20,000 nucleotides of DNA from an uncultured virus (IMG/VR IMGVR_UViG_3300020195_000012) (lineage: Duplodnaviria; Heunggongvirae; Uroviricota; Caudoviricetes): the IMG/VR virus record IMGVR_UViG_3300020195_000012; one strand, written 5' to 3'. Below are positions 2 to 19,181 of this stretch, one piece after another (the stretch's first letter is position 1; each line of letters begins with the position of its first letter). Below the pieces are notes generated by a model. It had not been told where the DNA came from. It did not search any database and saw nothing but the letters and a program-made list of their open reading frames with translations. The position numbers and the translations under genes are program-made.

Positions 2-3000
2 TCCAAGTCCGAACGAAGGTTAGTGGAAAAGAAGCTTGAAGAACTTATTAAAATTCAAAAAGACCCAACTAAAGGCAAAAAAGAATTTGACGCGAAAGTT
101 GCGGAATTGGCTCTTCTTGGTGAAAGAAGTTCTAAAATAGCCGAAAAGAAACGTGAAAAAGAAGTACGTGATTCCAGAATCAAAGAGATTGCAGACAAAG
201 GACGTACTTTTATTGAGTACGCACAAATGCTTGCTCCAAGTAGAGCAGGAATAGGAACTAAATTTGATCCAATGGCAGAAGCTGCGAGAGTTCGTGATGA
301 AACTCACGCATGGACGCAAGGCATTCACGAACAAATGTCTCAAAGTTTCGGCATGAGAGGAACAATGCTGGATCGTGGAGACCATGTAGGACCAGGAGAT
401 CAATATCGAAAAGCAACAGAAGGACTCAAAGGATTTTTTGAAGAAGCAAATGATCTTGCTACCGGAACTATCAGCAAAGGCGTTCTCGGAGGTGAAGCAT
501 ACTCGCGTGGAGGTGGTGGATATGGTAGTGGGACTACCTTAAAAGGAGCAACAGGTAAAGAAGTTGGTGGGATGTCATCTTTTGACGTCACTGGACAAAA
601 GACCGACAAAATACAAAAAGTCCTTCTCAAAAATACACAACGTGGCGTTACATCACTAAGCCGTTGGGTTTCACTCAGTAGACAAGGTCTTCAACTTGGA
701 ACTATGATCGGTGCTGATGCAGAACATACAGCAGAAGAACTAACTGATTGGCATCTTCAGATGGGAATGACCGTCGATCAAACATCCCAATACTCTAGAG
801 ACTTACAGACAGTCAGTAAAGTAACTGGCGTTACAGGCGATAAACTACTTGAAGCTGCAAAGAATGGTCGTTCGCTGGCAGACAGTATGCGAAGTGCTGG
901 TACATTGACGAGTGAGGCAGCGAAGAACTTGACTCAGTTTTCAGCAGCAGCATCTCGACGTGGAACTGACAAGATTGTTCAGCCTTTAATTGATGCTTTG
1001 AGTAGTACAGTCAATTTGTTTGATAGTGCTGATCCTGCTACATTTGCGTTGGCGATGCGTTCTGCGCAAATAGGTGGTGGACCAAAACTAATGACTTCTT
1101 TGCAAGCAGGAACTATACCACAAGACCCGAAACAAATGAAGGCATTTGCTCAAGGTTTACGTGGTGTGATGATGCAAATGACGGGTGGTCGTGAACTCAA
1201 TCAAATTGGTCCAGAAGAATTAGCGCAATTGAATTTGGCTGCAAAGAGTGCATATGGTAAGCAACTTAAAGAAATGGAAATGGGTGCTGATACTTTTGAA
1301 GAAGGCAGTATGTCTGTAGCCGAAAAGCTTGAAAAGATAGAAGCCACAATCAAAAAAGGAAATTTAACAGGTAAAGAACTTGAAGATTTAAACATTCAAG
1401 CAAATGCTTTGCTTGCTACACAACACACAGAAGATACGAATAATGCTCTTCGTAATCTTAATAGTATTACTGCCGAGATGAAGGGTGGAAAAACATTCGA
1501 TCAAGCGACAAAGACAGTAAGTGATCGAATTAATTATGTTAATCCAGATACTAAACTTCGTGAAAATATCAATCCCCAACAACAACTTGACAAAGTTATT
1601 GCAGGAATTGAAGCCAGTGCAAACAAATTAGAGGGACCAAGAGCGGAAGATCAAAAGCAACGCTTACTTGCTCGTGCGGCTGAGTTCAAAGAACGAAAAA
1701 CTACAATTGGTAGTGATCCAAAACAATTTGGATTGTTACTCAAGGACATGGATGATTTAATTCAAGCCAATCAAGTATTTGAGAAGCAATATCAACTGGA
1801 TCAGAGTACGTTTCAATTACGCAATCAAGAACGTGTTCAACGTGAATTTTTTGAGGATGAAATTCGCAAGGACTTGTTGTGGATGATGGCTTGGTCGCCA
1901 CCCAATGCATCTTTGGCTAATATTGCTATTGGTATCGCTGCTGGATTTGCTGGAATGCTTGAAATACTAATCAAAATACTATTGGCATTTGTCGGATTTT
2001 CTATACTTGGTAAAGCAATAGGAGCTTTAGCAAGCGTATTAGGCGGTCTTGGTTCAGTTATAGCTCCCAGCGCACTGGGAAGTGCTGCGGCTTTTCTAGG
2101 TGGACCTTTGTTAGTAGCCGGTGTTGGAGGTGCTGTTGTTGTTGGCGTTGGTCAATACCTTTCATCAAAATCCAAAAAAAAAGAGGAAGAACAATGGAAA
2201 GACCTTGGTACAGAACACTCAGCTGTTCGAGACTCTTTTCAACCTGTAATTGACGCAGAAAAAGACCCAAAGCGCAAAGCGCTATTAGAAAAAAAACTAC
2301 AGCTCGAACTAGATGTTAAAGCAGAACGAAAAAATCTGGAAGTATGGAAAACCAGAAGTGATGATCCGGAAACAATGGCACAAAGAACTGCTGAACGACT
2401 AGCGAATCTTTTTAGAAGGCGTGAGCGTGATTATGCAGTTCCAAATGGGCAATTAGAAATGGATGCCAACGTAGAAAAAGAACGAAATGAAGCTGTAATG
2501 GCAATACAAGCACGATTAGATGAATCTATCAAAGAATTAAAAGCATACAAACCAGACAATCGACAAGCAGTAAAAGGGTTGGGTTCTGATACCGCACAAA
2601 TATTTGAGGTAAATGCAAATCTCAATGCTGAAATAGCAAAACGTGGTCAAGAACTCAACCGTGCAGAACAAAGCGCGGCACTTGAAGTAGTCGGGGTTTG
2701 GAGTGCAAGGAGCGAGCAGGAGAAAATTAGTGCGCGCTTCTATTGGAGAAATTGGAGAAAAGCAAATAACCTGGCTCATCGATCACATGAGGATGCGGAC
2801 GTTGATTACATATTGTTCAAACAGTTCATCACAGAACAAATGGCAGCCAGACGTAATGATCCATCTAATCCTATCAATGTAGCACAGTCAAGTCTGAATT
2901 CAGCAGAACAAACACATAGCGATGTTGTTTGGGGAGGAGGAGAAAATATTGGAAATAAACTAGCGGAAATGATGCCCGCCATTGATCCAAAACTTCAAGA

Positions 3001-6000
3001 AACACTGAAACGACATCTTACACATATAGGCGCTCTACGAATCGACCGTGGAGAAACCTGGGACAAAGGACAAGATGTTATTGATTTGTTCAAGAAAATG
3101 AAAAAAGAATTAGGTGGATTTGAAATTGAAACCCACGTAAAAGAAGCTTTGCCAATGTTAGAAACCGCATCTTCCCACCAAAAAGATTTACGCACATGGG
3201 AAAGCACTCTCAAGGCACACCAGGACAAAATACGAAATTATGAAGACGCAATTAAAAATGCGATAAACAATCCAGAATTACTAAAATCGATTAATGAGAA
3301 ATGGGCTAAGGATGAATACCAACCACTTGATGAATTGAAGAGATTGATTGAAGGAACAAAAGAGATGGCAGCTATCACACAAAGATCAATGGCTGCGATC
3401 ACGCCAGCCGCAGCAGCACCACCAGTGCCAGGAGCAGTTGTACCACCAGTGCCAGGAGCAGTTGTACCACCAGTGCCAGGAGCAGTTGTACCACCAGTGC
3501 CAGGAGCAGTTGTACCACCAGTGCCAGGAGCAGTTGTACCACCACCATCGCCACCAACACCATTTATTGGATTGTTTGATAATTTGCTTCCTATGATTAT
3601 ATCTCAAGCAGACAAAGCAAAAATAGAGGCAGATAAAAAAACAGCAGAAGCAGCAGCGGCCGCCAAAAAAGCCGAAGGAGAAGGACTCTCTATTTTCGGC
3701 ATGAAGCTATCTGATATGGTAATCAAGATAAAAGAAGCCAATATCGAATCTGCTAATATCAATAATGCAATAATAAAGGGATTAAGTGGAATACAAATGC
3801 CACTATCTCCAATGCCCGCATATGGAACAGCACCACCCGGAACACCCGGACAGTCCTACGTCATGCCACTTAGCAACAATGCAGTTCCAACGCCAAATCA
3901 ACCTACTGCACCAAATGCCCCATCAGAACCTCGTAATTTTGTACAAAAAGGGTTTGATTGGAGCAAAGATGTAGTCATTGATACTCTAGCTCCAGCTGGA
4001 TTTCAAAAAACTCTTGAGTCATTAAAATCAATTGAACAACAAGGAAGTAATCAAGGTAATATACCATCATTAACATCTAGACCTGGAGAGGGCGGCAAAA
4101 TCAGTCATGGGGCTATGATTGATGAAATGAACGCAGGCGAACGTATTGTACTTGCTAAAAAACTTAATGTTTCTGAAGAAAACTTGAAAAAAATGTCGAC
4201 ATTAGACATTTACAAAAGAATGTCTGTCGCTCCGGATTTATCTACAGAAGCAACTAAATTTCGTTCTAAAATTGAAGAAAAATTCATTCCAAAACATGAA
4301 AAAATCGAACACAAAGACTTGTGGAACAAAATTGATCCAAAAACTCAAGAATACATATTGCAAAATGCAGAAATGACCAAAGAAGAAGCATTATCAATGC
4401 CAACAGAAAAATTCAAGAGCAAAATTGAAAGTTTCAATCCGGAAGGGGTAATGGGGCAAGGAGAGGCAGGTAAAAAAAGAGAGAAAAAAGTAAAAGAATT
4501 ACAAGCAGACGTTCGCACAATTACTGCACCCAAACCTGTACCTGCAACAGACAAAAATTCAATTGCAGTAGCAGGAGGAACAGCACGTGAAACCGGAACG
4601 GCAAAAGCTGGACAAATCGGAAGTGTTGCTACACCAACTGACAGAGTATCTGGAAAAGATATACTTTACTTCCAAAACGTTAATGCAATTGAAGATATGC
4701 TTTGGTCATACAGACCAGACATAGACTTACTCAAGTCCCACGAAATTGCTATCAAAACTTATGAAGATTATCGCGTACTCGCAAAAAATGGGAAAGTAGA
4801 ATCAGACACATTGCGCAAATTGCTTGATACTAACCTCAATGCTGCCACAGGGCAATTTTTGGGTACAACTCCAACGCCACCACTGGCGGAAGGAAAAGGC
4901 ATTGCCGCCCCTACAACACCTGGGATTGTTGGACCACCAGCACCATTGAAAATCTCTGGTAATACTTACGGAATCGCACCAACTCCAGAAGTTGCACCAG
5001 CGCCAAGAGCCGCAGGAACACCACAACCCGTTATAGACGATCCAGCAGAGCAAGCATTTGAAAAAGCTGCATCAGGAGCAGCAATGCCACCAGTACCATT
5101 GCCACCTGAATTCAAAGATGAATTGAATCTTGGTAAGAAATCGTGGACAGGTGAAATGGGAGATAATACTCGTATTTTCCAAATGGACCAAGATGAAAAG
5201 AAACGAAAACGTCAAGGGTACATTGGTGATCTTGGAACTTGGATGAAAACCACTGGGGGAGCAGGCGGTGTAGATGATACTTGGTCTAAATGGGAAGATG
5301 GAAAATGGGGAAAATCATCACTGCACAGTCCAGATGAACAAAAGAAACTCAAAGAAGCAGGCAAACTCAAGAGCGAAAAACCACTTGAGTATTATGATAT
5401 CAATGCAGCATCAGCACTCGGAGCCAATCCAGCAGGAGGTGGATTTGAAAAGAAAATAACAGACATTACCAAACGTATAGAATCACCAGGAGATACTACA
5501 GAATCAGGAATTGACATTGAGAAAATAATAAAATCAATGTTGACCAAATCAGCATACAATTTATCTCCAGAAGAATTAGAAGAATTCATAAAGAAATTTG
5601 AAAACTTCGATAAAATGTTCACAATGCCTCTAGCCCCAACAGACATAATTCCGTGGCTAAATGAGCCAGAAGCAAAGTCTGTCACCGAAAAGGAACCCGA
5701 AACAGCATCATCTACCAAGCCAGGAAGTGTTGGAGACTATGCTTACACAAAGGAAATGACAGACGTAAACGCCGTTGAAATAACCGGACCTCTCAACGAT
5801 GCCGTCAATCACCTAACAGAAATTGAATCAAATACACGTGAAACTGCTCAGGAAACTAGAAACGTAAGAGAACTCATGCAGAAACTCGTTGCCGCAATGA
5901 CTACCCCACGAAGCGAAAGCCGCAGCAACGGAATTGCACCAGGCGATCCTTCTACCGACAATAGACCAGGAAGTCCTCCTAACTACTACACCTGGGCACT

Positions 6001-6055
6001 AGATATGACAATGTCACCAAATCTAGGCGCAAGACGACCTAATGGAGTCACGTAA
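2..6055 (+). CDS. Giant tape-measure-like / tail-associated protein (>2010 aa, 5'-truncated by the window edge)
   Basis: The frame has no stop from position 2 (tcc aag tcc gaa cga agg tta gtg...), so the real start lies upstream. It has a long Ala/Gly/Lys/Glu helical N-terminal part, a Gly/Ala-rich hydrophobic stretch (LANIAIGIAAGFAG...GGAVVVGVG, ~aa 635-712) typical of tape-measure proteins, and a low-complexity Pro-rich C-terminal half. The function is inferred. Confidence 0.65.
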   Translation, partial: SKSERRLVEKKLEELIKIQKDPTKGKKEFDAKVAELALLGERSSKIAEKKREKEVRDSRIKEIADKGRTFIEYAQMLAPSRAGIGTKFDPMAEAARVRDETHAWTQGIHEQMSQSFGMRGTMLDRGDHVGPGDQYRKATEGLKGFFEEANDLATGTISKGVLGGEAYSRGGGGYGSGTTLKGATGKEVGGMSSFDVTGQKTDKIQKVLLKNTQRGVTSLSRWVSLSRQGLQLGTMIGADAEHTAEELTDWHLQMGMTVDQTSQYSRDLQTVSKVTGVTGDKLLEAAKNGRSLADSMRSAGTLTSEAAKNLTQFSAAASRRGTDKIVQPLIDALSSTVNLFDSADPATFALAMRSAQIGGGPKLMTSLQAGTIPQDPKQMKAFAQGLRGVMMQMTGGRELNQIGPEELAQLNLAAKSAYGKQLKEMEMGADTFEEGSMSVAEKLEKIEATIKKGNLTGKELEDLNIQANALLATQHTEDTNNALRNLNSITAEMKGGKTFDQATKTVSDRINYVNPDTKLRENINPQQQLDKVIAGIEASANKLEGPRAEDQKQRLLARAAEFKERKTTIGSDPKQFGLLLKDMDDLIQANQVFEKQYQLDQSTFQLRNQERVQREFFEDEIRKDLLWMMAWSPPNASLANIAIGIAAGFAGMLEILIKILLAFVGFSILGKAIGALASVLGGLGSVIAPSALGSAAAFLGGPLLVAGVGGAVVVGVGQYLSSKSKKKEEEQWKDLGTEHSAVRDSFQPVIDAEKDPKRKALLEKKLQLELDVKAERKNLEVWKTRSDDPETMAQRTAERLANLFRRRERDYAVPNGQLEMDANVEKERNEAVMAIQARLDESIKELKAYKPDNRQAVKGLGSDTAQIFEVNANLNAEIAKRGQELNRAEQSAALEVVGVWSARSEQEKISARFYWRNWRKANNLAHRSHEDADVDYILFKQFITEQMAARRNDPSNPINVAQSSLNSAEQTHSDVVWGGGENIGNKLAEMMPAIDPKLQETLKRHLTHIGALRIDRGETWDKGQDVIDLFKKMKKELGGFEIETHVKEALPMLETASSHQKDLRTWESTLKAHQDKIRNYEDAIKNAINNPELLKSINEKWAKDEYQPLDELKRLIEGTKEMAAITQRSMAAITPAAAAPPVPGAVVPPVPGAVVPPVPGAVVPPVPGAVVPPVPGAVVPPPSPPTPFIGLFDNLLPMIISQADKAKIEADKKTAEAAAAAKKAEGEGLSIFGMKLSDMVIKIKEANIESANINNAIIKGLSGIQMPLSPMPAYGTAPPGTPGQSYVMPLSNNAVPTPNQPTAPNAPSEPRNFVQKGFDWSKDVVIDTLAPAGFQKTLESLKSIEQQGSNQGNIPSLTSRPGEGGKISHGAMIDEMNAGERIVLAKKLNVSEENLKKMSTLDIYKRMSVAPDLSTEATKFRSKIEEKFIPKHEKIEHKDLWNKIDPKTQEYILQNAEMTKEEALSMPTEKFKSKIESFNPEGVMGQGEAGKKREKKVKELQADVRTITAPKPVPATDKNSIAVAGGTARETGTAKAGQIGSVATPTDRVSGKDILYFQNVNAIEDMLWSYRPDIDLLKSHEIAIKTYEDYRVLAKNGKVESDTLRKLLDTNLNAATGQFLGTTPTPPLAEGKGIAAPTTPGIVGPPAPLKISGNTYGIAPTPEVAPAPRAAGTPQPVIDDPAEQAFEKAASGAAMPPVPLPPEFKDELNLGKKSWTGEMGDNTRIFQMDQDEKKRKRQGYIGDLGTWMKTTGGAGGVDDTWSKWEDGKWGKSSLHSPDEQKKLKEAGKLKSEKPLEYYDINAASALGANPAGGGFEKKITDITKRIESPGDTTESGIDIEKIIKSMLTKSAYNLSPEELEEFIKKFENFDKMFTMPLAPTDIIPWLNEPEAKSVTEKEPETASSTKPGSVGDYAYTKEMTDVNAVEITGPLNDAVNHLTEIESNTRETAQETRNVRELMQKLVAAMTTPRSESRSNGIAPGDPSTDNRPGSPPNYYTWALDMTMSPNLGARRPNGVT
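3419..3544 (+). repeat. Perfect in-frame tandem repeat, 24-nt unit CCACCAGTGCCAGGAGCAGTTGTA x5 plus partial (PPVPGAVV)
   Basis: Units start at 3419, 3443, 3467, 3491 and 3515, followed by CCACCA. All copies are identical and there are no spacers. Confidence 0.97.
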
Positions 6056-6082
6056 AATTACCTTTTACCGATATATACAAAT

Positions 6083-7372
6083 ATGAAATCACATGAAGGT
6101 ATGTTAATAGAAAAATACGGGTACAGATTCAAGGAATTCATTTGCTTCAAAGAAGGCAAAGAAAATCTTGAACAACCCCACATTATCAGTTCTGATTCAC
6201 CCATGAAGCTACCTGCTGGAATCACTCGCATCATCGAGGCGTTCAAAAAAAGCAAAGAAGTGCCAATTGGAAAGGAAGTCGATTCCAAGTCAGGAGGTGA
6301 AAAGGACGTCACCCTCAAGTCAAAGAAAATCTTCATCGTAGGCGAGGCTGTACGTGACTTCCTGCTCGGACACACACCAAGAACCTACGATATCGCTACA
6401 GATGCTCACCCAGATGAAGTCGAACGCATCATCAAACACGCCAAACCACCCATCCAAGTTGTCAAAAAAGATAGCAAAAATGGCGTCGTCAAAGTGTCTA
6501 TTGATGGCGAAACTTATAACATCGAAACCATGAAACTACCAGGCGACGACGAAGGAAATATAACTTTTACAACCAACCCAAAAGAAGATAGCGAACGTAA
6601 AGACGTAACAATAAACTCACTGTACTACGAACCATCCAGTAATAAGATTTACGACTATACAGGCGGGCTACGACACCTGAAAGATGGAACCATCAAAATG
6701 ATCGGCAAAGCCAAAGACCGAATCAAGAAAGATGGAATGAGTAAATTCCGCTACGCAAGAATGCTCAACAAAGTCCCTAATGCAAAAATGCACGACGACG
6801 ACAAAGAAGCAATGTCAGACGAAATAGATTCAGAATTGCCACCAGAAAAAATCCGAGACGAGTTCTGGCAGGGCATGGAAGACCTGCATACCAACGCAGC
6901 CAAATACCTGAAAACCTATAATGAAATGGGTCTGCTCAAACAAGTATTCCCAGGACTAGAATTGACCTTGGACTTCCCAGAATGCAAAACTTGTAAATCC
7001 AAGCCACTCGTTCTTGCAAGCCTGCTCAAGAATAACAAGCCAGTCAAATTGGTTGAGAAATTACGTGATCTCAAATACACAGACCGTGACATTAGAGATG
7101 CAGTGTTCTTAATCAATCTGTTACTGTTCAAGCCAGACTACATCTCAGACTTCAAAACTGAAATGACCAAGACAAGTCTAACCAAGCGACAAATAATGGA
7201 TTGGGCTAAGATCAATAACTTGGACACGAACATGATTGAAAAATTCTTGACACACCAAATTAGCACTGACCCCATGGATGTGCATGGAAGAGAAGGACTT
7301 GTCGGAAATGATCTAAAGGACCGAGTTCGTAGAATGGAAGCAATGGCATTTATGAAAGCTATGCGGACCTGA
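6083..7372 (+). CDS. Class II tRNA nucleotidyltransferase (CCA-adding/poly(A) polymerase family) homologue with degenerate active site
   Basis: IFIVGEAVRDFLLGHTPRTYDIATDAHPDEV matches motif A (VGGAVRD..LG..P.D.DIAT). EDSERKDVTINSLYY matches motif B (EDA.RRD.TINA). IYDYTGGLRHLKDGTIKMIG and PPEKIRDEF are also family-typical. Key residues are changed (see findings). Confidence 0.9.
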   Translation: MKSHEGMLIEKYGYRFKEFICFKEGKENLEQPHIISSDSPMKLPAGITRIIEAFKKSKEVPIGKEVDSKSGGEKDVTLKSKKIFIVGEAVRDFLLGHTPRTYDIATDAHPDEVERIIKHAKPPIQVVKKDSKNGVVKVSIDGETYNIETMKLPGDDEGNITFTTNPKEDSERKDVTINSLYYEPSSNKIYDYTGGLRHLKDGTIKMIGKAKDRIKKDGMSKFRYARMLNKVPNAKMHDDDKEAMSDEIDSELPPEKIRDEFWQGMEDLHTNAAKYLKTYNEMGLLKQVFPGLELTLDFPECKTCKSKPLVLASLLKNNKPVKLVEKLRDLKYTDRDIRDAVFLINLLLFKPDYISDFKTEMTKTSLTKRQIMDWAKINNLDTNMIEKFLTHQISTDPMDVHGREGLVGNDLKDRVRRMEAMAFMKAMRT

Positions 7373-7586
7373 TATAATTACCAGAACACCAAACGAGAAA
7401 CCTGTGAGTATTTTCTTTACTCGCAGGTTTTATTTTTTTGCAATCCGAAACTCCGTAAACACCAGTAATAATGTTTAAATTGTCTGCAATCATTACTCTA
7501 GTCGTGATTAAATTCTTTTGATTTGTTGTAATATCGATTATCCTTCCAAGACAATTAAGATATTCAACAATATCTCCAACCTTCAT
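7359..7586 (-). CDS. Small hypothetical protein (MKVGDIV start, possible SH3/KOW-like barrel)
   Basis: 75-aa ORF abutting the HNH gene; its 3' end overlaps the convergent nucleotidyltransferase gene by 14 nt. Confidence 0.6.
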   Translation of the reverse strand: MKVGDIVEYLNCLGRIIDITTNQKNLITTRVMIADNLNIITGVYGVSDCKKIKPASKENTHRFLVWCSGNYIRSA

Positions 7587-8343: not shown

Positions 8344-8925
8344 TCAGCTCTCCAAGCCAATATAGACTGGAACTCCATCCTCAATTAATGTCATACTGGC
8401 ATTCGTGATTGTCATTGGCTCACGCCTGCCACCAAAGCACATTTGCCTAACCATATGCGTAATTGGAGTCATGTGACTCACAATGAAATAGTTCTTGTCC
8501 TTCTCTAATGAGGCAATAAAATCATTGATTCTGGTTCCGTAATCAGCATCAGACTCGTCATCGTAGTTGATGGTATTTTTGTTGCCAAACATGCTCCAAT
8601 CAAATAACGTATATTCACATGCCTTCTTGATAATCTCTGTTGATTGATGTTTGTGTACTGGTTCGGGGCTTTCGCCAATTCTTGTGTCAACACGAAACTT
8701 GACTCCGTTCATCGTCCAGAACTTGTAGGCAGTCTGCAAGCAACGATTGTACGGACTCACAATCCCAATGAAACTTTCAGGTTTTGCACCGATCTTCTCT
8801 CGACCCGCCAACGCCAAACGATGCGCTTGATCTTTACCACGCGGACTAAGATCGCTGTTAAATTGTTCGGTGCTGCCAGCATTGAACTGACTTTGCGCAT
8901 GCCGAACGAAGAAGATTTTTCCCAT
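8344..8925 (-). CDS. Histidine phosphatase (phosphoglycerate mutase-like, branch 1)
   Basis: N-terminal FFVRHAQS (RHG-type motif), DLSPRG..QA, SPYNRCLQTA, RIGE and IVSH. Confidence 0.9.
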   Translation of the reverse strand: MGKIFFVRHAQSQFNAGSTEQFNSDLSPRGKDQAHRLALAGREKIGAKPESFIGIVSPYNRCLQTAYKFWTMNGVKFRVDTRIGESPEPVHKHQSTEIIKKACEYTLFDWSMFGNKNTINYDDESDADYGTRINDFIASLEKDKNYFIVSHMTPITHMVRQMCFGGRREPMTITNASMTLIEDGVPVYIGLES

Positions 8926-9458: not shown

Positions 9459-10022
9459 TTAGTGCGAAAAAGCATCAATGCGAACTTTACTCTCTCTCGT
9501 ACTTTCCATTAGTTGTTTGACATTTTCCGCACAAAAACCAAACTCTTCACGTTCTATGAATTCGTATATCATGCCAGTCAGCCTATGAGGTTTACTGAAT
9601 ACCTGCTTCAAACCTGGACACGTCATTATATCCTTAGTGGTGAAATCTCCATAGCCCTTTTCCGTCCACTCTGCCATTTTTTTAGCAACAGAATCCACTT
9701 GGTACGCAATATGATGAGCGCCACCAATCCCATTGCGAGCCTCAACCCAATCAAAAACTATTGATCCAATCGTTCCTTCACTAACAAATATCTCAGGAGC
9801 AAGATGATATTCAAGTCGGTCATCTACATGATAAACCCACGGCATGTCCTTATCGAGTTTCTCTGGCGGCTCTAACGCCATGCATAAGGCTTTATCCGTC
9901 TTCTCGTCATTGAAGAAGATTTCAAACTCGGCTTGAATTTTGTATCCAAACGCATCCACAAAGAACTTGACTGCATCATCACGGTTTTTTACTCTGTAGG
10001 CGACGTGATCAATTCTTGACAT
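9459..10022 (-). CDS. VOC/glyoxalase-superfamily protein resembling the catalytic C-terminal half of 4-hydroxyphenylpyruvate dioxygenase
   Basis: RIDHVAYRV, GGAHHIAYQV, LKQVFSKP, YEFIER and GFCAENVKQLMES correspond to HPPD IDH / GIQHIAL / LLQIFTKP / FEIIQR / GFG.GNF.ALFE. Confidence 0.85.
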   Translation of the reverse strand: MSRIDHVAYRVKNRDDAVKFFVDAFGYKIQAEFEIFFNDEKTDKALCMALEPPEKLDKDMPWVYHVDDRLEYHLAPEIFVSEGTIGSIVFDWVEARNGIGGAHHIAYQVDSVAKKMAEWTEKGYGDFTTKDIMTCPGLKQVFSKPHRLTGMIYEFIEREEFGFCAENVKQLMESTRESKVRIDAFSH

Positions 10023-10772: not shown

Positions 10773-11200
10773 CGCTTTTTCCGTTCCGCTCGTTGCTGCT
10801 TCTTCCTTGCCTCTGCTCGTTCTTTTGGATTCAGGCGAACAATACCCTTTGCCTTACACATCTTTTGAAAATCATTCTGCATCTCTATAACTTCACCTTC
10901 AGTTCCAATATACATCTTGGGCGATACTCCCTTGATCCACATAAAGAACGTACCAATCTTGCCCTTGTCCGTGTCATAGAAATGCGACGCGGCAACATTC
11001 TTAACTCCATCAACTCTTGGCTTGCCTTTAGCCATCATCTCGGCAGAATTCTTGGCGAACTCTTCCAACTGTTCTTTGGAAAACAACGCTGATACTGTGT
11101 CTGTAGCAGCGACATCCGAATAAACAGCATCTTTTTTTTGTTCCGACAAATGTGGACCTTTTGTGTCCACAACAGCATTGTCAATTACTTCAGTAACCAT
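10769..11200 (-). CDS. Hypothetical protein with basic C-terminal tail
   Basis: 143-aa ORF overlapping both neighbours; ends ...ARKKQQRAERKKR. Confidence 0.75.
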   Translation of the reverse strand: MVTEVIDNAVVDTKGPHLSEQKKDAVYSDVAATDTVSALFSKEQLEEFAKNSAEMMAKGKPRVDGVKNVAASHFYDTDKGKIGTFFMWIKGVSPKMYIGTEGEVIEMQNDFQKMCKAKGIVRLNPKERAEARKKQQRAERKKR

Positions 11201-12582
11201 TTTTTGTCAAACTCCCGTGGGATTCCAAAATAAAACCTTTGATACTTTTGTTTCATGTCCTTGTACCAATCGGACTCTAAAATATAACTCAAATAAGCAA
11301 ACACATCACTGTACGGACGACCTGTCTCTTTCCAATAAAGTTTAAACTCGTCCGTCAAGTTGTTTTCAACTCCATCTACGGGAACAGTTCTATTCGCAGA
11401 TGGACTACAATTACGATTCACGTCATAGTCGGTGAACCCATGATAGTCCAAACAACCTTTACTTGGGTTGCCTGGAAAGTAGAAAGACCGGCATGGATTC
11501 GGATTCAACTGGTACACGAAACTTGCTTTTTTCAATGCTTCGTGTCGAAAATAGAACCGAATCTCATGACGGTGCTGGATTGGTTTGTAAAAGTTATCAC
11601 ATTGAAAATCTTTGGTGTCAACCCGTCGCCTAATCTCTTCAACATAACGACTAACCACTTCCAGTTTATTAATATCACCCTTCTTCAACGCCCTCAAATG
11701 CGGTTCACCCTGATAGGACAAACCTTCCATTACCCCAACTTGACCAGAGAACAACCTTATCAATCTTTCCTTGAAATGCTCTCTTGGCTCACATTTCACC
11801 GACAACAAAACACTCTCGCACGGAACACTTCCCAAGTAAGTTTTCTTGAATATGGATTGAAAAGGAATCAAGTCCTCGTCAACTCCATAAAACGAATCTA
11901 AGTTAGATTCAATCCCATCCCACAAAAACTTATCCGAACGTGTTCCATCTACAACAAAATGAACGTAACACAGGTCGGTTGTCACACCAAAAAAATCCTG
12001 TCCAATGTCATTCACTGATACAAGTCTAACATTGTTTTTCAGAAATCCCGTAAACGTCTTGTACGAACGAGAATTGTTCTGGAATATTGTCTTCGGCAAA
12101 ATGTAGTAAATGTGACCACTAACATTATTCTTCAAAATCAAATCAATGCTTTTGATAATGAAAAATACTGCTTCTTCTCGTATTCCTGTTACGCCATACT
12201 TCTCACACATCTTGCGAAGGTATGGCTTACGATTGAAAACCACATCATCGCCCAGTGAACAAGCTGGGGTGCGATAAGGTGGGTTTCCTATAAACGTTAT
12301 ATCGTTACCAACCAGTAAATCAAAATCATAGAAATTCAGATTAGCAACCTGTTCTCCTACGTACTCAAGCTCTTCATCTAACTCAATTCCCAAGATAATG
12401 GTATTTGGCGATTTTGCTCTGATCTTGTCTAAGAAAACACCTTTGCCGCAACTCGGTTCAATCACCAACGGAGTTACTATTTCCGTGTGACTCAAACAAA
12501 AGTCAGCAGTTTTATCCGGAGTGAAGAACTGCCCGAGTTGTTGCTGCTTCTCAGGTAAGTCTTTTGAATTGACTTTACCCAT
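11185..12582 (-). CDS. Amino (N6-adenine/N4-cytosine) DNA methyltransferase, gamma-class motif order, with a long unassigned C-terminal region
   Basis: LGQFFTP (motif X), VIEPSCGKGVF (motif I), GIELD, FIGNPPY (motif IV) and YILP. No cognate restriction gene is adjacent. Confidence 0.88.
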   Translation of the reverse strand: MGKVNSKDLPEKQQQLGQFFTPDKTADFCLSHTEIVTPLVIEPSCGKGVFLDKIRAKSPNTIILGIELDEELEYVGEQVANLNFYDFDLLVGNDITFIGNPPYRTPACSLGDDVVFNRKPYLRKMCEKYGVTGIREEAVFFIIKSIDLILKNNVSGHIYYILPKTIFQNNSRSYKTFTGFLKNNVRLVSVNDIGQDFFGVTTDLCYVHFVVDGTRSDKFLWDGIESNLDSFYGVDEDLIPFQSIFKKTYLGSVPCESVLLSVKCEPREHFKERLIRLFSGQVGVMEGLSYQGEPHLRALKKGDINKLEVVSRYVEEIRRRVDTKDFQCDNFYKPIQHRHEIRFYFRHEALKKASFVYQLNPNPCRSFYFPGNPSKGCLDYHGFTDYDVNRNCSPSANRTVPVDGVENNLTDEFKLYWKETGRPYSDVFAYLSYILESDWYKDMKQKYQRFYFGIPREFDKKWLLK

Positions 12583-13452: not shown

Positions 13453-14004
13453 TCAGACCAATCTGATCTGATCACACAGATTCAGTTCAAGGGCTTCTTT
13501 CGCAGTCAAATAGACATCCGATGGCGGAAGCAAGTGTTTTCTAATCATCTTCTCTGTCAAACCTGTGTGTTTTTTAAAATGACGCATAATCATTTCGCCA
13601 ATAATTTTGTCTCTTTTAATTCCCGCAATCAACTCGTGTTCTTTTCCATCTATACCGCCAGCAAACTGATGTGACATTATCAACGTGTTCGGTGTCAGTA
13701 TTCTATCACCCTTCTTGCCTGCTATAAAGATCAATAATCCCATCGACGCAATAATTCCCATGCCAACTGTGCGTATTGGAATTGTGCTTCCAGCCATCGC
13801 ATCAACCACAGACAACCCGGAACTCACATATCCACCAGGACTATTAATGATCAAAGTCAACATTTCATGACGAGATTCAAAATTCTCTTCAATGATCCAT
13901 CTTATAACATCTGCGCTTTGTTCATCATCCACGTCACCAGAAAATTGCCATACGCCCCAATCCTCTAGACTCTTACTTTCCTCTTCAAAATCATCGTGTT
14001 TCAT
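13453..14004 (-). CDS. clpP: ClpP-family serine protease
   Basis: INSPGGYV..GL.VVDAM, IASMG (catalytic Ser), IMSHQ (His) and DVYLTAKEALELNLCD (Asp); the triad is intact. Confidence 0.93.
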   Translation of the reverse strand: MKHDDFEEESKSLEDWGVWQFSGDVDDEQSADVIRWIIEENFESRHEMLTLIINSPGGYVSSGLSVVDAMAGSTIPIRTVGMGIIASMGLLIFIAGKKGDRILTPNTLIMSHQFAGGIDGKEHELIAGIKRDKIIGEMIMRHFKKHTGLTEKMIRKHLLPPSDVYLTAKEALELNLCDQIRLV

Positions 14005-14008
14005 GAAT

Positions 14009-14347
14009 TTACTCTATTGTTTTAGCATAATTGAATAATACTACATATGTCATTATTATGAAAGAAATTACGGAAGAAATCTCTACTCCAACATGCCAAT
14101 CTCTTCTTTTTGAACGAAATTTAATATAACAAGTTATAAACATTATAAGAAAAACGCCAATCGCTTTACTCAAAAAAAGAACATTCCAACCGTATTCTTT
14201 CAAGACGTAAGCCATAATTGGATTGTCTTCTTCGCATCCATGATAACTAATTGCAACATACGTCGTTAGGCAATCAAAGAAATGTAACACACACGTTAAC
14301 ATAATGATAGCCCAAAACCATCGATTTCCAATATAACCATGTTTCAT
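14009..14347 (-). CDS. DUF5658-like membrane protein
   Basis: FFDCLTTY...EEDNPIM...LSK pattern with about three hydrophobic helices. Start placed at 14347 (ATGA overlap with the pyrB stop) rather than 14380. Confidence 0.75.
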   Translation of the reverse strand: MKHGYIGNRWFWAIIMLTCVLHFFDCLTTYVAISYHGCEEDNPIMAYVLKEYGWNVLFLSKAIGVFLIMFITCYIKFRSKRRDWHVGVEISSVISFIIMTYVVLFNYAKTIE

Positions 14348-15225
14348 AGAATGTCTTGTAATAGAGCAGCGCGAATCCATAAACCATTTTCCGCTTGTCT
14401 AAAATACGCTGCTCGCAAATTATTATCAACTTCTGGAGATAATTCTTCTCGTCTTGGCAGTGGATGCATAACAATACTTGAAGGTTTCATGCTCTCAACC
14501 AACTCATATGTGATCCAAAAATCTGCCCCAAGTTTATCCCCACCACCACGTTCTGTCTGAAGTCTTGTCATGTAAACCACATCTGCCCCTTTGATTCCTT
14601 CCTCAACAGAATTTCTAAAAGCAATTGTCATTCCTTGCTTGAAAGCAAAATTCATCACTTCATCAGGCAAAGACAATTTTTCGGGACTCACCAAAGTCAA
14701 TTTTATTTTTTCATACAATCCAAGCAGGTAAATCAAACTGTGGATTGTTCGTCCATGTTTCAGATCACCAACCAGACAATAATGTTTATTATCCGGCTCT
14801 CCTGTCTCTCGATAAACTGTGTACAAATCCAACAATGCCTGCGTAGGATGCTCACCCGTTCCATCGCCCGCATTGATAATTGGAACGGTCGCTACGCTTG
14901 CAGCTCTTTGTGCTGCGCCATTGTCAGGGTGCCTTAACACAATTGCGTCACAATAAGTAGAAACAATTCTGATCGTGTCTTCCAGTGTTTCGCCTTTGAT
15001 GGCTGATGAGAATTGCGCAGCGTTCTCTGTTGAGATTACGTTTCCACCAAGTTTGAACATTGCTGCTTCGAAACTGAGACGAGTTCGTGTACTTGGCTCG
15101 TAGAACAAAGTGGCAATGATGCTTCCAGTCAAAGTTTTGAGTGGAGACATTCGGATTTGATCCGCCTCCTTGACAAGCCTTTTCACATCTTTGCGACCAA
15201 ACTGACGTGCGCTAATAACGTGCAT
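14344..15225 (-). CDS. pyrB: Aspartate carbamoyltransferase catalytic subunit
   Basis: FYEPSTRTRLSFE, KGETLEDT, VLRH, INAGDG..EHPTQALLD, GDLKHGRT, YMTRLQTER and MHPLPR; RBS AGGAG at 15232-15236. Confidence 0.98.
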   Translation of the reverse strand: MHVISARQFGRKDVKRLVKEADQIRMSPLKTLTGSIIATLFYEPSTRTRLSFEAAMFKLGGNVISTENAAQFSSAIKGETLEDTIRIVSTYCDAIVLRHPDNGAAQRAASVATVPIINAGDGTGEHPTQALLDLYTVYRETGEPDNKHYCLVGDLKHGRTIHSLIYLLGLYEKIKLTLVSPEKLSLPDEVMNFAFKQGMTIAFRNSVEEGIKGADVVYMTRLQTERGGGDKLGADFWITYELVESMKPSSIVMHPLPRREELSPEVDNNLRAAYFRQAENGLWIRAALLQDIL

Positions 15226-15560
15226 TTCCTTCTCCTGGTTTAGTGACTAAAACAAAGTCGAAAGAACCCCTGTGGGACAATAAGGGTTAAGCTGAATTAA
15301 AGCTTAATACGTTTAAAGTCAATTTAAGTACATGCAAAAAGTTAAGCATGCTTAATACACTTGTTACACTTACTAACATCAGCTCTCTTCACAATTGTGA
15401 ATGTCCCTTTGGGTAAAGGGCTGACATAACTTGAGTGTTCGACAAACAGAGTGGGGTTCTAAGAACTCTGGGACCGCCAAAGGTGAAGGCGTTGTCATGG
15501 TTTTTATCAGTGACTTCTGCGAGTGTTGGCTTGTTTCACTAATGTAGCCTCTTGCTACTG
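15226..15560 (-). ncRNA. Candidate structured 5' leader RNA of pyrB (~335 nt) or independent ncRNA; no known family recognised
   Basis: Lies between a consensus promoter and the pyrB RBS. By eye it has two three-way junctions (15441-15496, 15376-15427), several hairpins, and G-U pairs that favour the minus strand. Confidence 0.45.
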
Positions 15561-15566
15561 CGAACA

Positions 15567-15595
15567 ATGTTATGACAAAAATCATTTTCTGTCAA
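15567..15595 (-). promoter_or_regulatory. Sigma70-type promoter TTGACA-17-TAACAT pointing toward pyrB, overlapped by an imperfect inverted repeat
   Basis: -35 at 15590-15595, -10 at 15567-15572, 17-nt spacer; TGACA...TGTCA dyad at 15573-15594. Confidence 0.75.
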
Positions 15596-15632
15596 GTGCT
15601 ATTGTTTTTCACGTCTAAAGTAGTACACTGTC

Positions 15633-16040
15633 TTGAACACTTGGAGAACCTTTGTGATTTTGCTAACTCTATTTGTACTTGTTTGTTGGTGTGTCGCTAC
15701 AATTGCCGTCAACAAACCCGAGATTGCTAAAAACCTACCTGGACAACTTGATCTAGATTTGACTTCTATTTGGATGAAAAGTTATGCAGTAATTGTCTCA
15801 CCAGCAATTGTAGTTTGCCTCGTACTTGGAATTTTGGCTGCATTAATGTTTTTAGTGTTTTATTATCCTTTTGATTTGTGCGCAAGAAGAAGAGTCGCTT
15901 TAGAAGCAAAAAACATAACTTGGCAAAAAGAGCAGAATTTGAACGATTATCGACGTGAAGTTGAAGAGCATAATTTGCAAACCGCAATCAGTCGTTTTCA
16001 ACATCATAACAAACTGAACTCTAGCGGAAATGATATATGA
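15633..16040 (+). CDS. Two-TM membrane protein with a C-terminal soluble helix
   Basis: Hydrophobic segments FVILLTLFVLVCWCVATIAV and YAVIVSPAIVVCLVLGILAALMFLVFY; TTG start is uncertain; ATGA overlap with the next gene. Confidence 0.7.
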   Translation: MNTWRTFVILLTLFVLVCWCVATIAVNKPEIAKNLPGQLDLDLTSIWMKSYAVIVSPAIVVCLVLGILAALMFLVFYYPFDLCARRRVALEAKNITWQKEQNLNDYRREVEEHNLQTAISRFQHHNKLNSSGNDI

Positions 16041-16346: not shown

Positions 16347-16940
16347 ATGTTACACGTTATTACTGATGGCGGATACGATGATTGGCGAAAACAATTACTT
16401 GATTTATACTTACACACTCCAGGTTGCGTTAAGACTGGTGATGTGACATTAGCCAGTGGAGCCAAATCAGATTTGTACATTGACTCCAAAATGGTTTCAT
16501 TGTCTCATAAAGGATTACAACTCATTGGGGCTTGTTTTCTTGAACGGTTTCTAGAAGAAAGATTGGAGTTCAATGCAATTGGCGGGATGACAGTAGGGGC
16601 AGACCCAATAATTTCAGCATGTACGTTATTATCATCATGTTGGGGACATGGCGCAAAAGGCTTTATTGTACGTAAAGAACCAAAATCACACGGAACTGGC
16701 AAGCTGATTGAAGGACCGTTGAACAAGGGAGACAATGTAATTTTGGTAGAAGATGTGACTACAACGGGTGGTACACTGGTGCAGGCGACCAGAATCGTTA
16801 GAGATTACGGATGCAAAGTGGTTGCTGCGTATACGGTGGTTGATCGTGAAGAGGGTGGCACAGAATCACTTGCAAAAGAAGGCGTCAATCTATTTTCCAT
16901 TTTAGTACGTAAAGACTTGTTAAATGTTAACTCAATCTGA
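16347..16940 (+). CDS. pyrE: Orotate phosphoribosyltransferase
   Basis: TLASGAKSDLYID, GGMTVGADP, VRKEPKSHG, PRPP motif VILVEDVTTTGGT, and VVDREEGG. Confidence 0.97.
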   Translation: MLHVITDGGYDDWRKQLLDLYLHTPGCVKTGDVTLASGAKSDLYIDSKMVSLSHKGLQLIGACFLERFLEERLEFNAIGGMTVGADPIISACTLLSSCWGHGAKGFIVRKEPKSHGTGKLIEGPLNKGDNVILVEDVTTTGGTLVQATRIVRDYGCKVVAAYTVVDREEGGTESLAKEGVNLFSILVRKDLLNVNSI

Positions 16941-17196: not shown

Positions 17197-17706
17197 ATGT
17201 TTACGGCGAAGGTTTGTTCTAATATCCGAGAAGCAACAGAATATTCCAAAAAGTTGCTTGCGGAGTTAGAAACAACACGTGAATTAGAGTTTCAGGTTGT
17301 TTTGTCGTCGTCGGAGACTGAGTGTTGCGAGGCTGGCGGTGACTGGGATCATACATCATGCATTTTATTAAATGCAATCCGTGAAATGGATATGTTTCAA
17401 GGATATATGATGTATGATCGTAAATATGGTGGGTTCTGGGATTTTGTTGAATGGGAAGTTCCAAACAAGAAAAGACTTACACCCGACCCTGATGAGTGGT
17501 ATGTAACAGCGGGTGAGAAGCTAGTTGTAATACATAATGTTCATGCTTTGTGCGAAGATCAGTTCCCAATTGTGATTGTCAAAGAATCATTTTGGAATAA
17601 TCATGGCGATCAATGTTTGAAAATGTTAAAAGTTATAGAGCCAGGAATTGATTACACGACCAAGATAAGTCCAGCAGTATATGTCGAATTGTTTTTTGCG
17701 GAGTGA
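17197..17706 (+). CDS. Hypothetical protein (acidic, aromatic-rich)
   Basis: 169 aa with an AAGGA RBS upstream. Confidence 0.8.
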   Translation: MFTAKVCSNIREATEYSKKLLAELETTRELEFQVVLSSSETECCEAGGDWDHTSCILLNAIREMDMFQGYMMYDRKYGGFWDFVEWEVPNKKRLTPDPDEWYVTAGEKLVVIHNVHALCEDQFPIVIVKESFWNNHGDQCLKMLKVIEPGIDYTTKISPAVYVELFFAE

Positions 17707-18056
17707 ATATGAGTGAAATTGTGATCGTCCCAAAAGGATGGGGTTACGAAAAGATATTTGTTAACAAATCTTACTGCGGCAAGTTGCTTCATTTCAACGC
17801 AGGAAAACGCTGTAGTTTTCATTTCCATCGCATCAAGGACGAAGTGTTCTTTTTGCATAGTGGATTAATCCGCTTACTCTACAGTATGGATGACGATTAT
17901 TGTCAAGCGAAAGAACTGATTTTACAGCCAGGTGACAAGTTTGAAATTCCTATCGGATTAAGACATCAAATGATTGCACTTGAAGAAAGTGATCTGTATG
18001 AATTTAGCACAACAGATTACCCAGAAGACAGTTACAGAATCATACGAGGCGATTGA
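17703..18056 (+). CDS. Cupin protein (D-lyxose/mannose isomerase-like single cupin)
   Basis: VPKGWGYE...YCGKLL...CSFHFHRIKDEVF...PGD...IP.GLRH...EFST gives an H.H..K.E...H metal site. Start is GTG 17703 or ATG 17709. Confidence 0.88.
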   Translation: MNMSEIVIVPKGWGYEKIFVNKSYCGKLLHFNAGKRCSFHFHRIKDEVFFLHSGLIRLLYSMDDDYCQAKELILQPGDKFEIPIGLRHQMIALEESDLYEFSTTDYPEDSYRIIRGD

Positions 18057-18058
18057 CG

Positions 18059-18087
18059 TTGACACGTCTAATCGTCTGTGCTAATTT
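18059..18087 (+). promoter_or_regulatory. Sigma70-type promoter TTGACA-17-(TGc)TAATTT
   Basis: -35 at 18059-18064, TG at 18079-18080, -10 at 18082-18087. A GACGT-tgac-ACGTC dyad overlaps the -35, and a GGGC-agttc-GCCC hairpin sits just before the ATG at 18128. Confidence 0.6.
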
Positions 18088-18127
18088 AGTGTATAAAGTT
18101 TAAAGAGAAAGTTCGGGCAGTTCGCCC

Positions 18128-18673
18128 ATGTATATGAAGAGAAGAATGATAAATCGTAAAGACAGATATAAGGTTTATGAGGAATTGCTAGATGATCAAA
18201 AAATATACCAAGAGATAGTAGATGCGTCAAACAAAGTGATGAAAATAGTCAAGGCGGAATTGCCTTGGGTTAGTTTCTTGGAAGCGTTCAATTTGTTATT
18301 GTATGGAGATAGTTTTTTCGAAGAATGTTTAGATGAATCATTCTCTGATGATCTAAACCTATTGCCAGTAGAAAAAGTTTATCGCATTGAAACAATTTCT
18401 GGTAAGTTACTAGAGTTTCAACAAAGTGACACAGGACCAGATTACAAAGCTATTGCTGGTTCAGAGTCATCGAAAGTAATTAGATTTACGCCAGACCAAA
18501 TTATTCATGTTAAATGCGCAGATACAGTGGATCAAGGATTCTATCCGTATGGTCTGCCAATGACTGAAAAGTTTATACAACCGGAAATTGATATTGATTT
18601 CGTTGCTGAAGCGTCAAAGAATTTGATTTCTGCGTTGACGACTTGGCGTACAAATAAATTGTGGAGAGAATGA
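18128..18673 (+). CDS. Truncated paralogue of a T4 gp20-type portal vertex protein (181 aa)
   Basis: FNLLLYGDSFFE, LLPVEKVYRIE...GKLLEFQQ, IRFTPDQIIHVK...FYPYG resemble large-phage portal motifs (R....YGD.F.E; IAHFR....F.PYG.S). It ends before the MEDA...RAPERR.FYIDVG motif. Recognised by eye. Confidence 0.6.
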   Translation: MYMKRRMINRKDRYKVYEELLDDQKIYQEIVDASNKVMKIVKAELPWVSFLEAFNLLLYGDSFFEECLDESFSDDLNLLPVEKVYRIETISGKLLEFQQSDTGPDYKAIAGSESSKVIRFTPDQIIHVKCADTVDQGFYPYGLPMTEKFIQPEIDIDFVAEASKNLISALTTWRTNKLWRE

Positions 18674-18674
18674 G

Positions 18675-19181
18675 ATGCGTGCCTTTGCGTTTGTGGTTTT
18701 GGCTTTTTTGATTGCAACGTCTTCAATTAATGCACAACCACCTGTCATTCCTTCAAAAAAGGAAAAGGACAAGGAAAAAGAGCCACCACGTACTGGCAAC
18801 CCTGACGACGTTCCTGTCGTGCCAACAAAGAAGGATGAAAAGCCACCAGCAGAGAAATCTCCTGAAAAGCCTGAGATTATCAGTGGCGAACATGCTGTGT
18901 TGCCCGCAAGTTTAGTCAAAAATACAATTCGGGCACTCAAGAGTGGAAACACTACTTATGTTGCGGTGGATGCGGTCAGGATTGACGCAAAACGCAAAAT
19001 GTGGTTACATCCAACTTTCATAACTGGTGCCAAGACGAATGATCGTCCCATCCAGATCAGAAGAGACACGGAGGGATATCATATTGTTTTAGAACAGATA
19101 GAGCATCAATGGGAGGCGGAAGACGTTGACGGGATTACATCTAAATGGATTCCTGTCAAAAGCGTTTCAGTCAAAGAATGA
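18675..19181 (+). CDS. Secreted/periplasmic protein with a Pro/Lys/Glu-rich linker
   Basis: Signal peptide MRAFAFVVLAFLIATSSINA|Q, a low-complexity linker, then a ~95-aa globular domain. Confidence 0.85.
   Translation: MRAFAFVVLAFLIATSSINAQPPVIPSKKEKDKEKEPPRTGNPDDVPVVPTKKDEKPPAEKSPEKPEIISGEHAVLPASLVKNTIRALKSGNTTYVAVDAVRIDAKRKMWLHPTFITGAKTNDRPIQIRRDTEGYHIVLEQIEHQWEAEDVDGITSKWIPVKSVSVKE

Follow-up and report, generated by a model that had tools for sequence, protein, structure and literature searches.

A viral homologue of class II CCA-adding enzymes with a degenerate active site, probably retained as a non-catalytic binding protein behind a giant open reading frame

The CCA-adding enzymes of jumbo phages are described in PMC7824862 as enzymes that repair transfer RNA (tRNA) ends, and PMC7162821 lists CCA-adding enzymes among the translation genes of huge phages. 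Full-text searching, which did not cover subscription journals, found no inactive phage homologue of these enzymes in the literature. Here, we analysed a homologue of these enzymes on IMG/VR record IMGVR_UViG_3300020195_000012, a stretch of 20,000 nucleotides (nt) from an uncultured virus of the Caudoviricetes, which is referred to as the window. The gene lies at positions 6083 to 7372, directly behind a giant open reading frame (ORF). It is probably a selected non-catalytic binding protein (pseudoenzyme) derived from a viral CCA-type enzyme and made together with the giant protein, with tRNA-like RNA as its most probable ligand. The gene and its domains are as follows:

6083 to 7372, plus strand: class II tRNA nucleotidyltransferase homologue (P0001), 429 amino acids (aa), ATG start, intact frame, degenerate active site
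6329 to 6694, plus strand: head domain of the Pol-beta type (PF01743, Pfam), residues 83-204
6695 to 7369, plus strand: neck, body and tail, residues 205-429, aligned over the full length with tRNA-bound class II enzymes

PF01743 matched residues 83-204 with an expectation value (E) of 2.2e-25 (89.9 bits against a gathering cut-off of 23, Pfam), and phrog_2244 'tRNA nucleotidyltransferase' matched the protein with E 7.7e-23 (PHROGs). Met7, at position 6101, may be the true start, judging from the N-terminal alignment with homologues. A phmmer search of PDB sequences returned 14 distinct entries at E <= 1, with human TRNT1 at the top (E 6e-19), and the nearest solved relatives by sequence were TRNT1, E. 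coli poly(A) polymerase and the Geobacillus CCA-adding enzyme. Sequence homology over head and neck was shared with TRNT1 (4X4W, 8CBM), the Geobacillus stearothermophilus enzyme (1MIV), the Planococcus enzyme (6Q52) and E. coli poly(A) polymerase (3AQL). The NCBIfam equivalog models gave 100.4 bits against a cut-off of 305.65 (pcnB) and 77.8 bits against 290 (CCA); these cut-offs do not discriminate, because the canonical viral relative P0129 also scored below (177.5 against 290). None of the PADLOC anti-phage defence profiles matched the protein at E <= 0.001.

An AlphaFold2 model was built from a 150-row alignment, designated A3. Its mean predicted local distance difference test (pLDDT) value was 93.1 and its predicted template modelling (pTM) score 0.84, with poor definition confined to residues 1-30. 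Foldseek found full-length matches to class II CCA-adding enzymes with template modelling (TM) scores of 0.6-0.72, and VIA-align superposed model residues 30-429 on 3AQL, 4X4W and 1MIV with Z scores of 24-26.6 and 324-363 aligned residues. Structures with bound tRNA were among the VIA matches (8CBM, Z 24.5; 5HC9, Z 24.4), and the closest structural similarity of all was to viral models in BFVD, a Fadolivirus protein and gp28 of an uncultured marine phage (TM 0.74-0.85). Since the model and both sets of matches span the whole length, head, neck, body and tail are all retained. On this basis, the ORF is assigned to the class II nucleotidyltransferase superfamily with a predicted complete four-part architecture, and it has the structural residues T106, A108, P110, T176, D191, G194 and G195 in common with the class II enzymes.

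The active site differs from that of the class II enzymes. In these enzymes, the glycine pair of motif A binds the triphosphate and the aspartates of DxD bind metal, motif B (RRD) recognises the ribose and the triphosphate, and motif D (EDxxR) is the amino-acid template for C and A. The changes in the window copy were read residue by residue in an alignment with TRNT1 and against canonical relatives:

6341 to 6346, plus strand: motif A, G87-E88 replacing GG (G88E; IAGGAVRD in TRNT1, IVGEAVRD here)
6383 to 6391, plus strand: DxD site, T101-Y102-D103 (acc tac gat; pqDiD in TRNT1, prTyD here)
6518 to 6535, plus strand: third-carboxylate strand, N146-I-E148-T-M-K151 replacing E-I-A-T-F-R (E146N, R151K; FEITTLR in TRNT1, YNIETMK here)
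6596 to 6604, plus strand: motif B, R172-K173-D174 replacing RRD (R173K)
6728 to 6742, plus strand: motif D, K216-D217-G-M-S220 replacing EDxxR (E216K, R220S; EDYLR in TRNT1, KDGMS here)

All five substitutions claimed in the original prediction are therefore real by both comparisons. None of the five motifs by which an active CCA-adding enzyme or poly(A) polymerase is recognised (GG, DxD, third carboxylate, RRD, EDxxR) is present in its standard form, one of the three catalytic carboxylates is left, and the flexible-loop signature is degenerate as well (D153). The replacement of RRD by RKD is weak evidence by itself because the change is conservative. Chance is no issue for the set as a whole, given a significant homology and changes that fall on the positions best conserved across the family. 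With one carboxylate of three, GE in place of GG, and neither the glutamate nor the arginine of EDxxR, the window copy would be incapable of two-metal nucleotidyl transfer.

Relatives were collected by two protein searches. A word-indexed search yielded 219 proteins at E <= 1e-5, in which a tight set (P0002-P0046) had 37-73% identity to the window protein and P0047 was borderline at 30%; the remaining matches were ordinary PcnB and CCA enzymes that aligned over the head alone, at about 30% identity. The contigs carrying members of the tight set came from large uncultured phages and were as long as 634 kb and 554 kb. The phage GenBank collection held no member of the tight set and no DNA nearly identical to the window, and its best tblastn match, to published huge phages, was 32% identical. 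An exhaustive HMMER search gave 15,971 matches at E <= 0.001 and 120 at E <= 1e-30, and it added a layer of full-length relatives with 27-37% identity over residues ~80-427, many of them fused to other domains and up to 1930 aa long. This layer contains the nearest full-length kin among canonical viral proteins, comprising phrog_2244, the CCA-adding enzymes of jumbo and huge phages, and giant-virus homologues. In a motif table of 266 proteins, the 27-37% layer was canonical (VGGAVRD, KD[FY]D[LV], [YFH]EIATFR, RRDLTI, EDxLRxLRxxRF), unlike the tight set and the window copy.

Alignment A3 comprised 150 of 158 rows passing a length filter of 340-600 aa, with the fragments P0042, P0126 and P0127 and the longer fusions left out. 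A FastTree tree of these rows plus eight cellular enzymes (385 columns) placed the window copy in a 48-row clade with Shimodaira-Hasegawa-like (SH-like) support of 100 and a stem length of 0.39, consisting of 47 rows and the long-branched P0222. The D-D-E/D triad was missing in 46 of the 48 rows. The clade was nested in a 70-row group (support 99) together with a 21-row sister group, in which canonical proteins were mixed with degenerate ones that were placed separately, as pairs or singletons, at least five times. Degenerate DxD sites in the sister group were seen in P0047/P0182, P0245/P0256, P0137, P0248, P0143 and P0191/P0251. Because these members are placed separately among canonical ones, the catalytic site appears to have been lost repeatedly and independently in this viral lineage. 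The eight cellular outgroup rows did not fall on one side of a branch, one row being misplaced, and two branches were very long.

The 47 clade rows were then compared with 92 canonical rows, defined as the non-clade rows with D at both 101 and 103 (92 of 102); the ten other non-clade rows and P0047 were set aside. The active-site positions were distributed as follows:

G88: canonical rows 100%; clade G 33, D 7, E 6, L 1
D101: canonical rows D by construction; clade N 30, D 6, K 4, E 2, S 2, T 1, H 1, G 1
D103: canonical rows D by construction; clade D 21, N 15, E 8, S 2, Q 1
E146: canonical rows 97%; clade E 23, D 14, other residues 10
Position 148: canonical rows A in 97%; clade E 29, H 13 (42 of 47)
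R151: canonical rows 99%; clade R 18, K 24
R172: canonical rows 97%; clade R 30
R173: canonical rows 100%; clade R 42
D174: canonical rows 100%; clade D 42
E216: canonical rows 99%; clade E 21
D217: canonical rows 100%; clade D 33
R220: canonical rows 100%; clade R 17

The complete DxD was retained in two of the 47 rows (P0014 and P0038), and the four positions around the metal site (101, 103, 146 and 148) occurred in 30 different combinations. Lysine appeared at these positions nine times in nine rows (four times at 101, three times at 146 and twice at 148). The number of acidic residues among the four was two in 32 rows, three in nine rows, one in four rows and four in two rows. The structural residues named above, which are 90-100% conserved in the canonical rows, were invariant in the clade together with F289, A312, L315, L327 and L343; the whole set is 86-100% conserved in canonical rows. 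Changes counted by parsimony within the 48-row clade (residues 80-429, median of 10 changes per site) placed the catalytic positions among the fast sites, with 17 changes at D101 (81st percentile), 19 at D103 (85th), 14 at E146 (69th), 16 at E216 (79th) and 21 at R220 (90th). The 92 canonical rows, which for this count were also restricted at position 146 (E or D), formed a far more diverse set with a median of 36 changes per site, with none at G88, R91, D92, R173, D174, D217, R220, R223 and R226 and one each at R151 and E216. To judge by these alignments, the pattern is the signature of a fold under selection whose catalytic centre is no longer selected, and the pseudoenzyme reading of the original prediction gains from it.

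The substitutions were also said to be systematic, and as a description of the clade this did not hold, since of the five changes only the loss of DxD extends across it. Relatives with 68-73% identity to the window protein keep GG, RRD and often EDxxR. Among the 47 clade members, T101 was unique to the window copy, and the other replacements were found in six (E88), two (N146), three (K173), ten (K216) and five (S220) rows. The window copy was the most degraded member of its nearest 13-row subclade (T/D/N/E, GE, RKD, KD..S). What characterises the clade, as far as the aligned residues tell, is a dispensable active site and not a fixed new motif.

Several observations weigh against a purely non-catalytic binding protein. 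Residues of the nucleotide site are fairly conserved in the clade (G87 96%, R91 83%, D92 81%, R173 89%, D174 89%, N178 83%), so that binding of phosphate or of a nucleoside triphosphate (NTP) may persist. The nearest 13-row subclade is fairly regular, with N101, D or N103, D146 and E148, GG and RRD in 12 of 13 rows and R220 in eight of 13, and this regularity could mean that the metal site was remodelled and is not dead. One clade member, P0014, carries every canonical motif residue. The 100% conservation of positions 101 and 103 in the canonical rows follows from the way in which the set was chosen, the other positions being free of this bias. The tree rests on FastTree local support only, and RNA binding is deduced only from fold and charge. 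Residual or remodelled activity may thus be conceivable in some clade members.

We therefore considered that the protein might still be an enzyme, with a remodelled metal site built from N, D, E or H ligands, among them the E or H that is new at position 148, together with a new substrate or nucleotide specificity. The shift at position 148, from an almost uniform alanine to E or H, fits such a site, as does the presence of residues able to act as ligands (D, E, N, H or Q) at all four of 101, 103, 146 and 148 in 33 of the 47 rows. The retention of GG in 33 rows and of R173 and D174 in 42 rows each, as well as the intact P0014, point the same way. However, a remodelled site is hard to match with 30 combinations that include Lys, Gly, Ser, Thr and Val at metal positions, with no more than two acidic residues in 32 rows and one in four rows, or with templating residues E216 and R220 that are among the fastest sites. 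The window copy is moreover the most degraded of its subclade at this site yet otherwise conserved; therefore, the active site is not what selection holds. We regard a remodelled enzyme as unlikely.

Selection on the gene was assessed by a pairwise substitution test of seven full-length genes (window, L001, L004, L005, L007, L008 and L013; 21 pairs). The proportion of synonymous differences (pS) was 0.746-1.0 and was saturated (>= 0.75) in 20 pairs, with a proportion of nonsynonymous differences (pN) of 0.17-0.34; the ratio of nonsynonymous to synonymous substitution rates (dN/dS) in the sole computable pair was 0.09. At the 132 columns conserved in at least 85% of the clade, the window copy differed in seven (P39S, L104I, R173K, D237H, E336D, K338R, L388F), all of them conservative changes; such departures numbered 0-3 in its nearest relatives and 0-49 across the clade. 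Near-identical copies were present in six metagenome runs. One difference fell within the gene, 6144 G>A in contigs of four runs, where the codon reads as a change from Cys21 to Tyr; such slight variation does not permit a test. The ten runs listed included no RNA data set.

We consider it extremely improbable that the gene was inactivated recently and is drifting to loss. The window copy does have more private motif changes than its nearest relatives and a somewhat longer terminal branch than its sister (0.22 vs. 0.15). Against drift stand the intact 429-codon frame, the 47 intact relatives with saturated synonymous sites (dS) and low pN, the conservative nature of all seven departures, and the near-identical copies in six runs. 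The prediction of retention rather than decay was thus borne out. The opposite scenario named with it, intact close homologues together with neutral divergence of this copy, applied in one part: four motifs are better preserved in the close homologues, which nevertheless lack D101 as well, and the window copy is not diverging neutrally. These comparisons place the gene under long-term purifying selection as part of the clade. Enzyme homology, unconserved catalytic residues and purifying selection, which define a pseudoenzyme, were all found, and the gene resembles pseudoenzymes generally in that an enzyme fold is kept under selection after its catalytic residues have been lost.

The clade has also acquired features of its own, among them an insertion in front of the head:

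6254 to 6319, plus strand: clade-specific insertion of ~22 aa, residues 58-79, before strand 1 of the head, modelled as a beta-hairpin

In the AlphaFold2 model, the hairpin strands comprise residues 61-66 and 73-77 with pLDDT values of 95-98. K64, G71, G72 and K74 were invariant in all 47 clade rows, and the stretch was a gap in 87-93% of the canonical rows. The aspartate of motif C (D198), present in 95% of the canonical rows, was replaced by histidine in 45 of 47 clade rows (96%). In the body and tail, K305, D339, N345, R369, Q370, D373, W374 and K376 were fixed only in the clade. The net charge of the body-tail region was +5 in the window copy and +4.2 +/- 2.4 in the clade, vs. +1.1 +/- 4.1 in the canonical rows. 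We infer that the protein is kept for binding and that its likeliest ligand would be tRNA or a tRNA-like acceptor stem, held on the conserved, positively charged body and tail, while the hairpin 58-79 and the D198H change may form a new surface.

The surroundings of the gene are specific to the clade. The transcription unit and the corresponding loci are as follows:

2 to 6055, plus strand: 3' part of the giant ORF, cut by the window start (full 2434 aa in L003:2669-9973), ending 27 nt before the CCA-like gene
7397 to 7440, plus strand: intrinsic terminator with a 14-bp stem, a 7-nt loop and a T run, beginning 25 nt past the stop codon of the CCA-like gene
L001: giant ORF of 1177 aa, 9 nt before the CCA-like gene
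L005: giant ORF of at least 1117 aa, 32 nt before the CCA-like gene
L007: giant ORF of at least 1350 aa, 47 nt before the CCA-like gene
L004 and L008: C-terminal end of the giant ORF upstream of the CCA-like gene

L003 was 100% identical to the window over the CCA-like gene. Six of the seven distinct clade loci with upstream sequence had the giant ORF directly upstream, the exception being L013, which carries the CCA-like gene without a long upstream frame; L006, L009 and L010 begin inside the gene. No giant ORF adjoined the gene in the four canonical relatives (L002 and the published huge phages L014-L016). The terminator had a folding free energy (dG) of -20.4 kcal/mol (z -5.3), none of 200 shuffled sequences folded as well, and the next gene past it converges on it. 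With the giant ORF directly upstream and the terminator directly after, the CCA-like gene closes the giant-ORF unit as its last cistron, a position specific to the degenerate clade. The protein would then be produced late, together with the giant protein.

The giant ORFs were homologous only over an N-terminal domain of ~400 residues (BLASTP E 2e-29 and 1e-30; tblastn 1e-45) and over the last ~70-180 residues, which end in P-P-N-Y-Y-x-W. Lengths ranged from 1177 to 2434 aa among the loci and from 1271 to 1959 aa among seven database homologues, none of which is named. The giant ORF of the window contains a Gly/Ala-rich hydrophobic segment of 84 residues (1916-2167) and five tandem PVPGAVV(P) units (3422-3538). 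The original prediction placed the CCA-like gene behind a tape-measure gene; the placement proved to be conserved, and the tape-measure identity is plausible but without a Pfam, PHROG or PDB-profile match. Tape-measure profiles (PF10145, PF06791, PF20155 and the PHROG tail families) did not match the giant ORF at E <= 0.001, relaxed Pfam and PHROG scans gave only noise (e.g., TMP_2 at E 0.52), and the PDB profile search returned nothing relevant. Atlas language-model features scored 0.93 to PF10145 clusters in 22 of 30 matches, with few shared features, which makes this a lead only. This lead, the variable length, the conserved ends and the Gly-rich segment favour a tape measure, and we consider the chances of this identity about even, an ejected internal protein being the alternative.

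The genes upstream of the giant ORF were also inspected. The three of them contained no recognisable sheath, tube or baseplate proteins, and PDB sequence searches with the upstream proteins were empty. A 424-aa protein had weak nuclease-like leads only (Atlas). A conserved 170-aa protein two genes upstream (P0268, L003:1336-1848) was modelled with pLDDT 70 and had its best VIA match at Z 6.6, to YbjN-like and type III secretion chaperone-like folds (Z 5-6.6), which is too weak to name it. The gene just upstream of the giant ORF matched phrog_429 'DNA end protector' in L001 (5723-6418, E 4e-7) and L003 (1853-2659, E 3e-4), and this match hints at particle-borne or ejected proteins in the unit rather than a classical tail module.

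This setting allows for a protein linked to the virion or to injection that was recruited from a nucleotidyltransferase and works by contacts with the giant protein, in whose company it would be assembled or delivered, with RNA binding secondary or lost. It is possible, though on the unlikely side, and it is not exclusive of the binding protein proposed above. The position behind the giant ORF, kept in six of seven loci over ~50% sequence divergence and in none of the four canonical relatives, speaks in its favour, together with the short gaps (9-47 nt), the shared terminator, the phrog_429 match, the clade-specific invariant hairpin and the strongly conserved body and tail helices. However, the giant ORF matched neither tape-measure nor other structural profiles, the 424-aa and 170-aa upstream proteins are unlike sheath or tube, the CCA-like protein has no conserved N-terminal targeting or cleavage motif, and L013 carries the gene without the giant ORF.

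Two specific links to the particle or the giant protein were tried and rejected. A T4-type capsid-targeting tag, (L/I)xE within the first 22 residues, was present in 24 of 47 rows but at shifting places, and the MLIE of the closest relatives of the window copy is simply the protein start. The giant ORF and the CCA-like ORF share one frame in the window (6053-6085), where one TAA is the sole stop that separates them, and likewise in L001. A read-through fusion was rejected because the frames coincide in two of six loci (not in L004, L005, L007 and L008), which is the chance expectation.

The protein could also assist or regulate an active class II enzyme without catalysis of its own, that enzyme being a paralogue in the phage or the CCA enzyme of the host; it would pair with it as a heterodimer or compete with it for tRNA. 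Class II enzymes often dimerise, and the mixture of canonical and independently degenerate proteins in the sister group means that both kinds of duplicate exist in the viral lineage. There were no tRNA genes in the window, L001, L003, L005 or L007. The related contig G001 had at least two (C1:157597-157670 and 26601-26712; L023 and L024), one a tRNA-Leu(TAG) and the other 112 nt long and uncalled by ARAGORN, and a reading of the flanks showed that neither encodes its 3' CCA. Such phages would therefore depend on CCA-adding activity from somewhere. However, G001 (174.7 kb, estimated 35% complete) had no second PF01743 gene besides the degenerate copy, and three published huge phages each had one canonical copy and no degenerate one. 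We consider a partner of this kind very unlikely.

The wider gene content of the window includes an HNH endonuclease and an S-adenosylmethionine (SAM) methyltransferase among genes typical of very large phages. Pyrimidine-synthesis genes are represented by an aspartate carbamoyltransferase (14344-15225, minus strand; PF02729 E 9e-46, PF00185 E 1.5e-29) and a phosphoribosyltransferase (16347-16940, plus strand; phrog_32468 E 1.8e-31), and a 5'-nucleotidase gene is also present. A ClpP-family protease (13453-14004, minus strand; PF00574 E 4.5e-30) also matched head-maturation protease families in PHROGs (phrog_94 E 2.9e-24). A small cupin (17703-18056, plus strand) matched phrog_7851 'cysteine dioxygenase' (E 1.1e-50), with Pfam Cupin_2 below threshold. 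An Eco57I-like, type II-like methyltransferase of 465 aa (11185-12582, minus strand; PF07669 E 5.5e-6, PADLOC MTase_II E 8e-15) had no nuclease partner nearby. A histidine phosphatase (8344-8925, minus strand) and a glyoxalase-fold protein (9459-10022, minus strand) are encoded downstream of the CCA-like gene. The same two genes are also downstream in the 51%-identical L001 (13635-14276 and 16371-16946), which indicates a wider conserved block. L001 further carries aminoacyl-tRNA synthetases of the class II Asp/Lys/Asn type and the class I Met type (14382-15884 and 17425-18702, both minus strand) within 8 kb of its degenerate copy.

Some host toxins attack the CCA end of tRNA. The protein might be a late-made, possibly virion-delivered binder of tRNA acceptor ends that arose from a CCA-repair enzyme without its catalysis, acts or travels with the giant protein, and shields, sequesters or marks tRNA 3' ends at the next infection, for example against such toxins. 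In this detailed form, the proposal is quite unlikely. If true, it would be a counter-defence of a new class for phages, one that relies on a decoy for RNA ends.

In large phages, CCA-adding enzymes are routinely annotated as genes for tRNA repair or the support of translation, and they are counted as such. Because at least one widespread lineage of them very probably has no enzyme activity, these annotations credit the phages concerned with more metabolic capacity than they have. The clade provides a natural series of active-site decay in the class II enzymes, from P0014 with all motifs, through members with changes in DxD only, to the window copy with changes in five motifs. A full-length and probably non-catalytic binder of tRNA-shaped substrates, long kept and linked with a giant late gene, offers a concrete candidate for a new phage function, which may lie in RNA sequestration, the protection of tRNA ends or a structural role.

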